Origin: a virus
Length of the DNA: 16,036 nucleotides
Strand: one strand, 5' to 3'
Virus record (IMG/VR): IMGVR_UViG_3300012985_000282
Below are positions 8,770 to 16,036 of the stretch, in pieces; positions within the stretch are counted from its first letter, which is position 1, and every line of letters starts with the position of its first letter. Made by a program: the position numbers and the translations under genes. The notes under the pieces were generated by a model that saw nothing but the letters and a program-made list of their open reading frames with translations, was not told the origin of the DNA and did no database searches.

Positions 8770-9000
8770 TTAAGCAATGTTGTCTAACCAGTTCGTCGGT
8801 GCCCAACCGACCTGTCCGTTGATGACGATGTAAGCGAGCCTCTCAAAGTAACCATCACGTTCTTTCTTGACGATAGAGACCAGGAGGGCGATGCCTCCAC
8901 GAGAACAACTCACGACGTTGCGCATGCTCATGTGATGACTGGTGAACAGCTCGTTACCCATCCAGTGAGCGATGGAACCTGGCAGGAGGTTAAGACCCAT
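8770..9000 (-). CDS. PGD-GW small-domain paralog (start at MGLNLLPGSI; ORF is open further upstream to 9303)
   Basis: The C-terminal 76 aa of ORF 8770..9303 carry the family motifs LLPGSIAHWMGNE, IALLVSIVKKERDGYFERLAYIVINGQVGWAPTNWL. The upstream 100 codons are Arg/Ala-rich and low-complexity. Confidence 0.5.
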   Translation of the reverse strand: MGLNLLPGSIAHWMGNELFTSHHMSMRNVVSCSRGGIALLVSIVKKERDGYFERLAYIVINGQVGWAPTNWLDNIA

Positions 9001-9199
9001 CAGTTCAACGTGGTCGGAGCAGGTGGCATCGATTCCGTGGGCGGTGCCTCGTCGAGCGGCAAGACCTCGAGCTGTGCCATCCCACGGGGGAACGTGGTGT
9101 TTGGAGCCTGCAAGGCATTGAAGGTCGATTTCGCTAGCGTTTCTAGCTCGACAGGCTCGTGAAAGACGGCAGTGATCGTGATCCTGACAGCGCGTGTTT

Positions 9200-9406
9200 T
9201 CATTTTGAACCTTGCATCTTCTTGGCACACTGTTCGCAGACAGTCGCCTCGACCGGTCGACACGTTGACATGGTACATGAAGCGTAACAGAAGCTGTCAC
9301 CACACGGTCCCACGTAGTCCTTTGTCCTGATGGACCTCTTGAACGTCGTCTTCTTTCGTCGGAGACAACTCTGACACGTGTACTCGATGCCCAGTTCCTC
9401 TGTCAT
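9200..9406 (-). CDS. small Cys-rich protein, putative zinc ribbon (8 Cys, two CxxC pairs)
   Basis: 68 aa: MTEELGIEYTCQSCLRRKKTTFKRSIRTKDYVGPCGDSFCYASCTMSTCRPVEATVCEQCAKKMQGSK. Its start overlaps the upstream stop as ATGA (9403-9406). Its 3' part overlaps the open 5' extension of ORF 8770..9303 in another frame. Confidence 0.4.
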   Translation of the reverse strand: MTEELGIEYTCQSCLRRKKTTFKRSIRTKDYVGPCGDSFCYASCTMSTCRPVEATVCEQCAKKMQGSK

Positions 9407-9723
9407 GTTACAGACTTACCATCTCTGGTAGGAGCGTTGCACTGCCTCAACATGTGGCGCCAGGTAAAACGAAAGACGTCTGAGCCGTTCGGCGTCGAGA
9501 CCAAGAGCGCGACGATTGGAATCTGCTTCGAGCCTTCGATGATCGAGATGACCAGGGCCGAACGATGTGACTCGAGCTCTCCTTGGTGAGGATGCACCAT
9601 CTTCAGTTGCCCGTTCTCAGCCTGGTCATACGCACGCCAGAGATAACAACTGGACGAGTTCTTACACGTGACCAGGTCTCCGGGAGCTATCGTTGCCGTG
9701 CTGTTGGCTTCAATCGTGTTCAT
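9403..9723 (-). CDS. PGD-GW small-domain paralog
   Basis: TIAPGDLVTCKNSSSCYLW, ALVISIIEGSKQIPIVALLVSTPNGSDVF. Confidence 0.55.
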   Translation of the reverse strand: MNTIEANSTATIAPGDLVTCKNSSSCYLWRAYDQAENGQLKMVHPHQGELESHRSALVISIIEGSKQIPIVALLVSTPNGSDVFRFTWRHMLRQCNAPTRDGKSVT

Positions 9724-10027
9724 ATTTCTCGAGCCTGTCTAGGTCAGTGTGACTAATCCATCCGAGGTTTCCTTCTGCCAAGACGTAGACCCAACCACAC
9801 CCGTTGGGCCTGATGACGAGACACTTACACTCGTAAGAGAGTCTGCAGAGGTACAACTCATGTGACGTGGGATGGTCGCGACTGATCCCGGGTGCCTTGC
9901 ATAGGTGAGGCTGATTGACCTCAGACTCAGGCTTCTCGTACTTTCGGGTGATGAGCACGTCGCCTGGCTTGCACTTGTACGCGGCACGCACCGGCCTGGT
10001 GATGTCCGTCTCGGACTCTTCCATCAC
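9710..10027 (-). CDS. PGD-GW small-domain paralog with N-terminal extension
   Basis: KPGDVLITRKYEK ... CLVIRPNGCGWVYVLAEGNLGWISHTDLDRL. There is an ATGA overlap with the upstream gene at 10024-10027. Confidence 0.55.
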   Translation of the reverse strand: MMEESETDITRPVRAAYKCKPGDVLITRKYEKPESEVNQPHLCKAPGISRDHPTSHELYLCRLSYECKCLVIRPNGCGWVYVLAEGNLGWISHTDLDRLEKYEHD

Positions 10028-10311
10028 CAGAGGTTCTCCGAGAAGAGTTGGTTGGCGTGGACCTCACGATCGGTTCGCAACTGACCGTTCGCTCGAGCGA
10101 TGCCTAGCGCGCACTTTCGCGTGAGGTACAGACCGTTTTCATCTAAGAACCCTTGGTCTTGCCCACGTGAGTCGACGTGGGTGACGTCCGGGTTTCGTTC
10201 GATGATCAGTCGGATGACGTCGTGGTGCCGGTTGGGCGCGGGCAACGAGTAAACGACGCCTTGAAACCTAATCGCGACGTGTGTGATCTGCGGTCTTTTT
10301 TGCTCTTCCAT
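10024..10311 (-). CDS. hypothetical protein, not a member of the paralog family
   Basis: 95 aa: MEEQKRPQITHVAIRFQGVVYSLPAPNRHHDVIRLIIERNPDVTHVDSRGQDQGFLDENGLYLTRKCALGIARANGQLRTDREVHANQLFSENLW. It lacks the PGD and GW motifs and is embedded in the operon with an ATGA junction at its 3' end. Confidence 0.4.
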   Translation of the reverse strand: MEEQKRPQITHVAIRFQGVVYSLPAPNRHHDVIRLIIERNPDVTHVDSRGQDQGFLDENGLYLTRKCALGIARANGQLRTDREVHANQLFSENLW

Positions 10312-10618
10312 TTTTCTTCTCCTTGTCGTTGCTAAGCGACATCACGTAGCTTGACCACGTGTAATAGAGGTGTTGTCTGCTGGGGACGTATAACAACAGG
10401 ACGTCTATGTCGTGTGGGACGTCGTGATCAGTGAAGACTGCGACGACGAACGCAGGCTCGTTGAGGTCACAGAGGGCTCGGTTTTCCATGCGAACGCGTG
10501 ACTTCGTGTCGCTGATGACGATGCTGTCTGAGGTCACGTAAAAGTCGACCCACAGCGCGGGTCTCATGTTGAGTTTGGGCCTGATCAGGTCGCCAGGAAG
10601 TATCTGTCGTTTCGACAT
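10268..10618 (-). CDS. PGD-GW small-domain paralog (start at MSKRQILPGDLI)
   Basis: The internal Met at 10616-10618 lies 1 nt after the upstream stop (10620-10622). Motifs are ILPGDLIRPKLNMRPALW, FVVAVFTDHD and VLLLYVPSRQHLYYTWSSYVMSL. Confidence 0.55.
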   Translation of the reverse strand: MSKRQILPGDLIRPKLNMRPALWVDFYVTSDSIVISDTKSRVRMENRALCDLNEPAFVVAVFTDHDVPHDIDVLLLYVPSRQHLYYTWSSYVMSLSNDKEKKNGRAKKTADHTRRD

Positions 10619-10619
10619 C

Positions 10620-14791: not shown

Positions 14792-15012
14792 GTCGGACTC
14801 ACTAACGCTCGCAGGTTGAGGTAACCCAAGCGCTCTCGCGTGATGACGAGCGCGTAATTCGTGTCATGGTCGACAGAGATGACAAGCACCAAGTCGCCCT
14901 TGCTGACCATGGAGGTCACCTCCCGACGCTTGGCTCCTGCCTCTCCGTCATCCCAGACGTTCCAAAGACCGTTCAGAACGCTAGCGAGCTGTCCAGGTGT
15001 TATGTCAGACAT
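14788..15012 (-). CDS. PGD-GW small-domain paralog (minimal form)
   Basis: MSDITPGQLASVLNGLWNVW ... SKGDLVLVISVDHDTNYALVITRERLGYLNLRAL. Confidence 0.65.
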   Translation of the reverse strand: MSDITPGQLASVLNGLWNVWDDGEAGAKRREVTSMVSKGDLVLVISVDHDTNYALVITRERLGYLNLRALVSPT

Positions 15013-15031
15013 TGTTAACGATGAATGACAT

Positions 15032-15265
15032 CTAGATGGGCCTCAGGACCTTGATGTTGACAAATCCCAAGAGACCGCGAACGAGACAGCGTGCGTACAC
15101 CATGCCAGCATATGACTCACCTTCACATGCGATGATTAGCAACACGTCGTCCTGGTCGAGCCAGGCCACACGCTGGGCTTCGCCCTCGTAAGAGTGATTC
15201 CACATCGACCAGGTTTCTCCGCTGTCAATGACGGCAACGTCGCCAGGGACGACCGACCGCGTCAT
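15032..15265 (-). CDS. PGD-GW small-domain paralog (minimal form)
   Basis: MTRSVVPGDVAVIDSGETWSMW ... DQDDVLLIIACEGESYAGMVYARCLVRGLLGFVNIKVL. There is an ATGA overlap at 15262-15265. Confidence 0.65.
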   Translation of the reverse strand: MTRSVVPGDVAVIDSGETWSMWNHSYEGEAQRVAWLDQDDVLLIIACEGESYAGMVYARCLVRGLLGFVNIKVLRPI

Positions 15266-15483
15266 GAGACCCTCTCACAACAACCTTGGTGAACGTAACC
15301 CGTCATCCCTCTGATGAGAACGTAGAGCTGACCGTATCCGATCCTAGATGAAACATCGATGATAAGAGCTAACTCACCCGTCTCAAGACCGACGATGGCC
15401 TTCTGTTCAAAAGGAGAACATGGAGGTTCCCACAGGCTGTAGTTGGCCTCGCTTATCTGAATGCAATCGCCTGGAACGTACAT
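15262..15483 (-). CDS. PGD-GW small-domain paralog (minimal form)
   Basis: MYVPGDCIQISEANYSLW ... ETGELALIIDVSSRIGYGQLYVLIRGMTGYVHQ. There is a TGATG stop/start overlap at 15481-15485. Confidence 0.6.
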   Translation of the reverse strand: MYVPGDCIQISEANYSLWEPPCSPFEQKAIVGLETGELALIIDVSSRIGYGQLYVLIRGMTGYVHQGCCERVS

Positions 15484-15743
15484 CAGTTGATCTTTTGTAG
15501 CTTGTAAACGTCAACGAATCCGACCCAACCCGTCTTGGAACAGATAACGACGGCCCACCTTTGGTGGTAACGCCCGGCATGGGTGCCAGAAACATAGACG
15601 ATCAATAACGTGTCACGAATGTTTAGGTCCATGAGCCATTGGCCGCCTGGACCTGGATCGATCCACAAGGAAAGACCGTGACAGGTAGCACAAGCGAACG
15701 CACCAGGAAACAAGGTGCTCGGGTCCGTCATCGGGTCCATCAT
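15483..15743 (-). CDS. PGD-GW small-domain paralog
   Basis: LFPGAFACATCHGLSLW ... DTLLIVYVSGTHAGRYHQRWAVVICSKTGWVGFVDVYKL. There is an ATGA overlap at 15740-15743. Confidence 0.6.
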   Translation of the reverse strand: MMDPMTDPSTLFPGAFACATCHGLSLWIDPGPGGQWLMDLNIRDTLLIVYVSGTHAGRYHQRWAVVICSKTGWVGFVDVYKLQKIN

Positions 15744-16012
15744 ACCTTGTTTTCTGCAACGTTGACACAGTAGGCGTACTCGAGGTTAACGTAACCCACC
15801 CGATTCGTGAGCGAAGAGATCACGAACGCAGATCTCTTCGAGTGCCTGACAGCGACGGCGACGACTAACAACATGTCAGAAAACGAGAGCTCGCAGACCA
15901 GGTCACTGGTCTGTGTGGTTTCATAGTAAGGTCGGTCCCACAGGCCGATCTTATTGAGGCGTGGCCTGATGACGTCGCCTGGGTTCAGCCTGCGTATCTC
16001 TGAAGGTTCCAT
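15740..16012 (-). CDS. PGD-GW small-domain paralog (start probably at MEPSEIRRLNPGDVI; ORF-track TTG start at 16033)
   Basis: LNPGDVIRPRLNKIGLW ... DMLLVVAVAVRHSKRSAFVISSLTNRVGYVNLEY. The Met at 16010-16012 overlaps as TGATG a stop that closes another frame running in from the window edge. Confidence 0.55.
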   Translation of the reverse strand: MEPSEIRRLNPGDVIRPRLNKIGLWDRPYYETTQTSDLVCELSFSDMLLVVAVAVRHSKRSAFVISSLTNRVGYVNLEYAYCVNVAENKV

Positions 16013-16036
16013 CAGAAGGCCTTGTACAGGCAATGA
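16012..16036 (-). CDS. 3' end of a further upstream gene (probably another paralog) entering from beyond the window
   Basis: Minus-strand frame from 16035 reads ...HCLYKAF-stop, with the TGA at 16012-16014 overlapping the ATG at 16010-16012. This is the same coupling geometry as the rest of the array. Confidence 0.25.

Follow-up and report, generated by a model that had tools for sequence, protein, structure and literature searches.

Tandem genes for stand-alone SH3b/SH3_3-like proteins, very probably a lineage-specific hyper-expansion in a huge bacteriophage known only from metagenomes

In Bacillus phage G, a zinc-ribbon family of ~35 copies was called unprecedented by a survey of jumbo phages (Iyer et al. 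2021, PMC7824862), and the expandable families of large eukaryotic viruses include the ankyrin, BTB and F-box proteins and the herpesviral US22 (SUKH) proteins (Zhang et al. 2011/2012, PMC3113570, PMC3482391). Archaeal Borgs, which have multicopy genes plus a major vault protein (MVP), are one of the nearest precedents for the locus described here. We analyzed a stretch of viral DNA of 16,036 nt (IMG/VR record IMGVR_UViG_3300012985_000282; the whole stretch is hereafter called the window), in which a nearly unbroken run of short minus-strand genes lies on either side of two large genes. Very probably, the span at positions 8770–16036 encodes lineage-specific, hyper-expanded, stand-alone SH3b/SH3_3-like beta-barrel proteins of a huge (jumbo) bacteriophage known only from metagenomes. 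As in phage G, a phage with a very large genome carries tens of copies of one tiny domain. Unlike the zinc ribbon, the domain has an SH3-like fold, about 50–60 copies are present on an incomplete contig, and the expansion recurs in several divergent lineages as contiguous arrays of overlapping genes around an MVP-like gene. Both the fold and the phenomenon of lineage-specific expansion are known; the family, the scale and the genomic setting are new. We found no report of SH3 arrays in phages in the literature, and the array is among the largest single-domain gene expansions that we found reported for a phage.

To avoid circularity in counting the family, we built a hidden Markov model (HMM) from 117 members of the family encoded by other phages, with the sequences of this phage excluded, and used it to search a six-frame translation of the window, comprising 243 stop-to-stop open reading frames (ORFs) of 40 aa or longer. 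Thirty-three ORFs matched at E<1e-3 and a 34th (756–1019) at 2e-3. Every one of the 34 lies on the minus strand in its called frame, and the best non-member ORF reached E 0.094. An initial annotation, made from the letters alone, had claimed at least 34 paralogs of a single family, and exactly 34 were recovered, 23 in 8770–16036 and 11 in 1–3222. The left-flank copies were also recovered, more weakly, by an HMM of right-flank copies only, and the right-flank copies were linked to one another by all-versus-all BLAST (1e-4 to 1e-13). All 34 reading frames are open. The genes are spaced with almost no gaps and form polycistronic runs with overlaps mostly of 4 nt (ATGA/GTGA), which border both sides of a block of DUF4314, MVP-like and flotillin-like genes. 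The family takes up about 60% of the window and one third of the contig, and the judgment that an array of this size is unusual stands for a phage. The 23 right-hand genes, described as consecutive, have the stated number and strand, but three unrelated genes interrupt them (10024–10311, 9200–9406 and 9000–9203). Two gene calls were also revised: the ORF at 8770–9303 has its true start at 9000, giving a product of 76 aa, and the left-flank ORF at 494–751 (minus strand) encodes a membrane protein and does not belong to the family.

We aligned the 34 candidates with MAFFT, and the motifs noticed by eye were recovered as conserved columns. These are PG[DQ] (P in 97% and G in 100%), followed by two hydrophobic positions; L-W (53% and 66%); the A/L-L-V-I-A strand (V in 79%); W-x-L-L (W in 61%, then L-L); and the C-terminal G-x-hydrophobic-G-W (G in 79%, W in 67%, with a hydrophobic or aromatic residue at the last position in 100%). 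The distance from PG to the Trp, given initially as 10–14 residues, was measured as 6–30 with a median of 13. Pairwise identity, estimated by eye at about 20–35%, was 12–35% against the first member. The conserved columns are hydrophobic-core, Gly/Pro or turn positions, and variation among copies is concentrated in the loops, with lengths of 6–30 residues for the A-B loop, 4–38 for the RT loop and 0–12 for the n-Src loop. Members are 65–130 aa long, and their N-termini vary in length, so that the domain starts at residue 3–37. No signal peptide, lipobox, membrane anchor or N-terminal hydrophobic segment was found in the members, whose hydrophobic maxima fall on core strands, away from the N-terminus. 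Since signal peptides and membrane anchors are absent, the members are taken to be cytoplasmic.

To name the domain, we turned to structure and to remote homology. The AlphaFold2 model of the copy at 14582–14791 (predicted local distance difference test (pLDDT) score, 93) is a small beta-barrel of SH3 topology with the N-terminal extra strands typical of SH3b, and its best structural matches were the cell-wall-binding domains of endolysins, NlpC/P60 hydrolases, InlB and AtlE. Similarly, the BFVD matches include endolysin SH3b domains. The left-flank member at 756–1019 gave a weaker model (pLDDT 76), which matched generic SH3-like barrels. As modeled, the domain that the initial annotation left unnamed is a bacterial-type SH3 (SH3b/SH3_3-like) beta-barrel. 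A word-indexed homologue search (7 proteins) did not reach beyond this phage and a close relative, and going further took an exhaustive profile search. In 1.84 billion representative proteins, the family profile found 201 matches at E<=1e-3, most of them unnamed proteins of 70–110 aa. SH3_3/GW repeat proteins were among them: tandem SH3_3 repeat proteins made up five of the eight multi-domain matches scanned, and P0011, P0022, P0025, P0031 and P0047 showed remote homology to SH3_3 at E 1e-11 to 1e-5, whole-protein values that are inflated by summation over multiple domains. In P0011, the clearest case, the best stretch of the profile (508–576) coincides with the Pfam SH3_3 stretch (520–576). 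The C-terminal G-x-hydrophobic-G-W motif is the SH3_3/GW signature.

The family is not represented by any model of Pfam, NCBIfam or PHROG. Scans with Pfam, PHROGs, NCBIfam and PADLOC assigned no family to any of the 34 members, none of which reaches a Pfam SH3 threshold (the best was one SH3_2 match, E=0.0076), and the family profile gave only insignificant matches to PDB sequences (Rieske and SH3; E>=0.1). A related-locus search with a single member retrieved the same phage only, and tblastn of two representative members against 50,697 GenBank phage records gave no match. Thus, within the bacterial SH3 superfamily, the family forms a divergent branch of stand-alone proteins that is missing from the catalogues. 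Compared with described SH3b domains (Pfam SH3_3 PF08239 and GW PF13457, clan SH3), its members fall below every Pfam SH3 threshold, keep PG[DQ] nearly invariant, stand alone, lack a signal peptide and are encoded by dozens of tandem phage genes. Like them, YorP of B. subtilis SPbeta (PDB 2heq) is a phage-encoded single SH3-like barrel of 65–100 aa, and stand-alone SH3-like proteins of Microbacterium, Mycobacterium and Pseudomonas phages are found in BFVD; unlike the array members, these are products of single genes, and they have no detectable sequence similarity to the array members. In the window and the library matches examined, the only multi-domain forms were tandem SH3 duplicates or generic SH3_3 repeat proteins, and there was no fusion to a catalytic, wall-hydrolase, surface or virion domain. 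The fold is ordinary; its deployment is unusual. An origin of the family from the neighboring DUF4314 or MVP-like protein was rejected because hhalign shows no relation to either.

A metagenome contig of 40.8 kb in ENA (hereafter the source contig) contains the window at 99.9% identity, and a sister strain matches the window at 99.3%. MVP relatives 63–70% identical are encoded on viral contigs of IMG/VR as long as 309 kb (67% on the 309-kb contig), and homologues as a whole on IMG/VR contigs of 115–359 kb; those about 40% identical occur on the 359-kb contig and in the 'uncultured phage' records LR756500-3 (462–735 kb). At least 10 further genes are syntenic with MVP-bearing viral contigs, and neighboring genes match phage families (phrog_839/T4_Y16D, a NinI-like phosphatase and a DnaB-like ATPase). 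Because its MVP homologues lie on large viral contigs, with relatives exceeding 200 kb, and because of this synteny and the PHROG-matching neighbors, we assign the element by sequence comparison to a huge phage, whose own genome size we infer, the source contig covering only 40.8 kb.

About 50 members are encoded on the source contig, all on the gene strand, including about 16 further members upstream, past the right window edge; the sister strains L006, L007 and L008 have nine family genes more. Arrays of this type recur in at least five divergent metagenomic lineages. We found 49 members in 13.6 kb in L025, 39 in 17 kb in L024 (G+C content (GC) 0.46), 30 on both strands in L026, where the array ends at a truncated MVP start, and about 14 upstream of MVP in L014 (GC 0.35), the four lineages spanning GC 0.35–0.56. 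Phage MVP homologues fall into two clades, at 63–70% and 37–44% identity. In the nearer clade, 2–9 members lie within 10 kb. In each of the nine loci whose MVP is 62–70% identical by tblastn, the MVP-like gene has members as its immediate neighbors, and this is also so in L026. Linkage to MVP, found in these ten lineages, is common but not obligatory, and the flotillin-like gene is shared with one related locus only (L013, 74%). None of eight loci of the distant MVP clade had a member within 10–20 kb at E<=0.1. The L024 array lies between the same marker genes (a 187-aa protein and a gp23-like 118-aa protein) and has no gene longer than 226 aa, and hence no MVP gene, in the 17 kb examined. Because of L024, the distant MVP clade and the sporadic flotillin gene, the functional tie of the family to the core module is weak. 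In L011, L013, L015, L017, L022, L014 and L026, a contig end is found only a few kb from the MVP/array region; either assembly fails at the arrays or the region sits close to a terminus of the genome.

The family had been judged old and diversified rather than recently duplicated, and this proved correct. Identity to the best paralog has a median of about 33%, and 23 reciprocal-best pairs with L025 are collinear (rho 0.86, p 2e-7), with orthologue identity falling from 89% beside MVP to 25–48% distally. The T4_Y16D gene (10024–10311) keeps its place in the L025 array at 64% identity, indicating that the array order is ancient. Two left-flank copies have orthologues 40–51% identical in distant phages of very different GC. 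The two flanks, which might have formed separate clades, gave no two clean clades; left-flank copies are merely more divergent. DNA-level repeat searches and tandem-repeat searches revealed no recent duplication, cassette or diversity-generating-retroelement-like repeat. Adjacent copies resemble each other more often than expected by chance: 13 of 50 copies have their most similar paralog no more than two genes away (4.0 expected), as do 22 of 35 in L024 (3.9 expected). About 2 kb (nine genes) present in L006, L007 and L008 is absent from L005, the strains being 99% identical, and the L005 junction (L005 7385–7645 versus L006 2662–4962; about 2.4 kb past the right window edge) is a chimeric gene formed within a 51-nt stretch that is identical in two paralogs and encodes GQLGFVRSDL. 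This chimera inside a shared stretch indicates unequal homologous recombination. These results indicate that the array grew by tandem duplication and that its copy number shifts via unequal recombination between paralogs. Compared with the 99.3% identical strain, the family genes have 36 synonymous and 16 non-synonymous differences, a non-synonymous to synonymous polymorphism ratio (pN/pS) of 0.14, versus 49 and 5 (pN/pS 0.03) in the other genes. The 116 differences to strain L001 are strongly clustered (20 in 13501–14000, 22 in 7001–7500 and 33 in 1–1000), and this patchiness suggests recombination between strains; those that fall in the MVP-like gene are all synonymous. Most copies are ancient and individually maintained, and copy number is still changing.

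The ligand groove of SH3 domains is bordered by three loops, A-B, RT and n-Src. Because these are the loops that vary here, we tentatively favor, with a confidence somewhat short of half, the explanation that the SH3-like barrel array of this huge phage acts as a binder library. That it is specifically a cytoplasmic library of small binding modules with diversified specificity is possible, and we hold this more detailed proposal with greater reserve. Paralogs sharing an invariant barrel core and differing in the A-B, RT and n-Src loops would be co-expressed during infection; each module might bind a different host or phage protein or peptide and thereby sequester, inhibit or relocate its target, with a possible role in host take-over or counter-defence. 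The expandable binder families of large eukaryotic viruses ('genomic accordion') may serve as a model for such action, since in these families and in polyimmunity arrays, as here, tandem diverged paralogs change in copy number by inter-paralog recombination. Unlike them, this array has no toxin or known target gene nearby and an unrelated fold, and the comparison concerns the mode of action. A polymorphic-toxin polyimmunity array as such was rejected: no toxin-like gene is present in the 35.5 kb of contig examined, and the members match no known immunity family.

Several observations weigh against the binder-library explanation. The closest structural relatives, the wall-binding domains of endolysins and other proteins named above, bind cell-wall polymers rather than cytoplasmic proteins. 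The family genes show purifying selection (the pN/pS of 0.14 and the collinear orthologues), unlike the diversifying selection of an arms-race model. None of the 34 members matches PADLOC, and we found no anti-defence precedent for an SH3-like fold in the literature. A promoter scan detected no phage promoter motif, and sigma-70-type sites were at background (7 versus 5.4 expected). The near-constant place beside the MVP-like gene in ten lineages could point to a more specific role. Should the array be a binder library, huge phages, like giant eukaryotic viruses, can spend a sizeable share of their genes on expandable small interaction modules; its proteins would offer SH3 scaffolds that are small, stable and diversified by nature, and their targets could bring to light new mechanisms of host take-over or counter-defence.

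The place beside the MVP-like gene suggests instead accessory subunits of a phage vault- or flotillin-type cage, in which a conserved face would dock and the variable loops would recruit clients, or the proteins would themselves be cargo; we consider this unlikely. Besides the adjacency to the MVP-like gene in the nine loci and L026, the copies nearest MVP are the best conserved (89%, 58% and 56%). Prokaryotic SPFH proteins usually come with a small beta-barrel protein, NfeD, as their partner, and like NfeD and the minor components of vaults, the array members are small beta-rich proteins encoded beside a gene for an SPFH-type or MVP cage protein. However, NfeD has membrane helices and a C-terminal OB-fold (PF01957), vault partners use an INT domain, and neither is matched here; an NfeD partner of SPFH was rejected, as no member matches PF01957 and the SPFH linkage is not conserved. 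Nor are the members similar to the MVP repeats or DUF4314. The 39-copy array of L024 without an MVP gene, the eight distant-clade loci without a nearby member and the restriction of the flotillin-like gene to one relative all argue against the cage, adjacency among related phages may be mere inherited synteny, and the conserved residues are core positions, with no obvious shared docking surface. The SH3-like paralogs might also be exchangeable adaptors for a phage compartment of MVP plus flotillin, each copy recruiting a different host or phage client into or onto a protein cage built by the phage inside the infected cell. We regard this version as decidedly doubtful; if true, a virus would for the first time be seen to select cargo by means of a vault homologue.

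The canonical role of SH3b, binding to the cell envelope (peptidoglycan, teichoic acid or polysaccharide) at lysis, adsorption or virion decoration, would agree with the structural matches to wall-binding domains and with the SH3_3/GW repeat proteins and endolysin SH3b domains among the profile and BFVD matches. It is nonetheless improbable, as is the corollary that many copies would match diverse host cell walls: the members lack a signal peptide, lipobox or anchor, they have no catalytic or virion fusion, and their genes sit among small non-structural genes, outside lysis or tail modules. There is a similarly small chance that the proteins are nucleic-acid- or ribosome-binding small barrels (Tudor/KOW/Sm-like) that modulate transcription, translation or DNA packaging. 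About one third of the members are basic (isoelectric point (pI) 8.5–10.1) and the wider locus has IF-1-like and methionine aminopeptidase genes, but about half are acidic (pI 4.3–5.9), and neither a Tudor aromatic cage nor a KOW glycine motif is conserved in the alignment. The array would be selfish or neutral filler from slippage or recombination, most copies having no selected function, only if one sets aside the open state of every reading frame, a pN/pS well below 1, the order and copies kept between phages whose T4_Y16D proteins are only 64% identical, and the two copies kept at 40–51% identity across very different GC. Variable copy number between near-identical strains, degenerate motifs in some copies (1245–1535 and 202–507) and a pN/pS above that of neighboring genes (0.14 versus 0.03) lean toward filler, which we consider very improbable. 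The internal-protein (IP) locus of T4 is defined by a conserved N-terminal capsid-targeting sequence (CTS) with a prohead-protease site. A locus of this type was rejected for the array, in which the N-termini vary and the sole shared motif, PG[DQ], is strand 1 of the barrel.

Table 1. Genes of the window, with coordinates in its 16,036 nt and the evidence for each assignment.
Feature	Coordinates	Strand	Evidence
SH3b-like member, truncated by left window edge; PGD, LVIW and GW motifs visible	1..201	-	independent HMM E=1.7e-5
SH3b-like member, 101 aa	202..507	-	independent HMM E=1e-5
85-aa hydrophobic membrane protein within left array, non-member	494..751	-	independent HMM E=0.17; GRAVY (grand average of hydropathy) 0.67
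SH3b-like member, 87 aa, 'WWCP' variant	756..1019	-	independent HMM E=2e-3
SH3b-like member, 82 aa	1016..1264	-	independent HMM E=6.3e-5
SH3b-like member, 96 aa, degenerate C-terminal motif	1245..1535	-	independent HMM E=8.3e-6
SH3b-like member, 82 aa	1532..1780	-	independent HMM E=5.7e-5
SH3b-like member, 77 aa, AGD replaces PGD	1777..2010	-	independent HMM E=1.4e-6
SH3b-like member, 102 aa	2007..2315	-	independent HMM E=9e-6
SH3b-like member, 119 aa, long RT-loop insert	2312..2671	-	HMM E=1.2e-5; L009 orthologue 40% identical
SH3b-like member, 101 aa	2668..2973	-	independent HMM E=8.8e-7
SH3b-like member, 80 aa	2980..3222	-	independent HMM E=8.2e-7
105-aa acidic helical protein, non-member	3219..3536	-	no significant Pfam, PHROG or PDB match
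Two-helix membrane protein of 61 aa, directly following flotillin-like gene	3533..3718	-	translation; no family match
SPFH/Band 7 (flotillin-like) protein, 617 aa	3806..5659	-	Pfam Band_7 4.5e-28; PDB QmcA 5e-6
MVP-like protein, 898 aa	5745..8441	-	Pfam MVP_shoulder 3e-30, Vault_3 4e-9
DUF4314 protein, 75 aa	8499..8726	-	Pfam DUF4314 2.9e-10
SH3b-like member, 76 aa	8770..9000	-	independent HMM E=1.4e-6; gene call in L002
Unrelated 67-aa gene interrupting array	9000..9203	-	gene call; no HMM match
Unrelated Cys-rich 68-aa gene (CxxC pairs) interrupting array	9200..9406	-	L026-array homologue 63% identical
SH3b-like member, 106 aa	9403..9723	-	independent HMM E=1.6e-9
SH3b-like member, 105 aa, best conserved copy	9710..10027	-	HMM E=1.6e-10; L025 orthologue 89% identical
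T4_Y16D/phrog_839 protein, 95 aa, interrupting array	10024..10311	-	PF26092; phrog_839 1.5e-15
SH3b-like member, 116 aa	10268..10618	-	independent HMM E=5.1e-8
SH3b-like member, 127 aa, longest RT-loop insert	10620..11003	-	independent HMM E=1.6e-10
SH3b-like member, 93 aa	11000..11281	-	independent HMM E=3.6e-7
SH3b-like member, 111 aa	11262..11597	-	independent HMM E=9.9e-13
SH3b-like member, 103 aa	11555..11866	-	independent HMM E=5.6e-15
SH3b-like member, 98 aa	11903..12199	-	independent HMM E=9.4e-10
SH3b-like member, 95 aa	12196..12483	-	independent HMM E=6.5e-8
SH3b-like member, 115 aa	12535..12882	-	independent HMM E=6.4e-14
SH3b-like member, 91 aa	12879..13154	-	independent HMM E=4.3e-9
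SH3b-like member, 81 aa	13151..13396	-	independent HMM E=5.7e-8
SH3b-like member, 103 aa, inter-strain difference hotspot	13389..13700	-	independent HMM E=1e-12
SH3b-like member, 123 aa	13697..14068	-	independent HMM E=2.8e-8
SH3b-like member, 79 aa	14080..14319	-	independent HMM E=4.8e-13
SH3b-like member, 82 aa	14316..14564	-	independent HMM E=2.3e-12
SH3b-like member, 69 aa, minimal domain, copy modeled	14582..14791	-	
SH3b-like member, 74 aa	14788..15012	-	HMM E=3.7e-13; BLASTP 2.6e-13 to 14582-14791
SH3b-like member, 77 aa	15032..15265	-	independent HMM E=7.8e-12
SH3b-like member, 73 aa	15262..15483	-	independent HMM E=2.5e-10
SH3b-like member, 82 aa	15483..15731	-	independent HMM E=1.7e-8
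SH3b-like member, 90 aa; array runs on past right window edge	15740..16012	-	independent HMM E=2.2e-12

The MVP-like and flotillin-like genes are of interest in their own right, as we found no description of vault (MVP) homologues in phages in the literature. The MVP-like protein is full-length; it matches human and rat MVP in the PDB at 1.2e-19 over residues 520–851 and, with its MVP_shoulder and Vault_3 matches, belongs to the MVP family; its N-terminal repeats match only weakly (Vault 0.033), and cage assembly is putative. Among the GTDB genomes scanned with MVP, only two contigs of metagenome-assembled genomes matched, at 39–44% identity, and gave no host clue. A strong 13-bp hairpin follows the MVP-like gene (5726–5697), and another strong one of 13 bp the flotillin-like gene (3787–3755). 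SPFH operons often include a membrane partner, and the small membrane protein gene at 3533–3718 directly follows the flotillin-like gene. The DUF4314 gene lies immediately upstream of the MVP-like gene, and DUF4314 homologues also occur near MVP in L009 and L017. The Cys-rich product of 9200–9406 is probably a zinc ribbon. In the membrane protein gene at 494–751, inter-strain differences are many (10 synonymous and 3 non-synonymous).

Other genes of the phage clade were noted outside the window. A 187-aa protein without a family match is encoded upstream of the array on the source contig (L005 4782–5345), and homologues lie near the array in eight lineages (L009, L010, L011, L013, L014, L024, L026 and this one); the gene stands just before the array start in the source contig, L014 and L024, and inside the array region in L026. 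The 118-aa protein of L003 (12808–13164) matches only positions 60–105 of the 444-position profile of the T4-type major head protein (phrog_138 6.5e-9; PF07068) and is kept in five relatives; from its sequence, it resembles a piece of a capsid protein that has been retained as a gene of its own. Genes for a methionine aminopeptidase (Peptidase_M24) and for an IF-1-like protein are also present in the clade (L003 14679–15425 and 20233–20258), and L014 encodes a GroEL-like chaperonin (12146–14262). The end of the 116-kb viral contig of L014 (1–640) carries low-complexity repeated ORFs, reading PRPR... on one strand and GSGS... on the other, which include two near-identical 65-aa copies.

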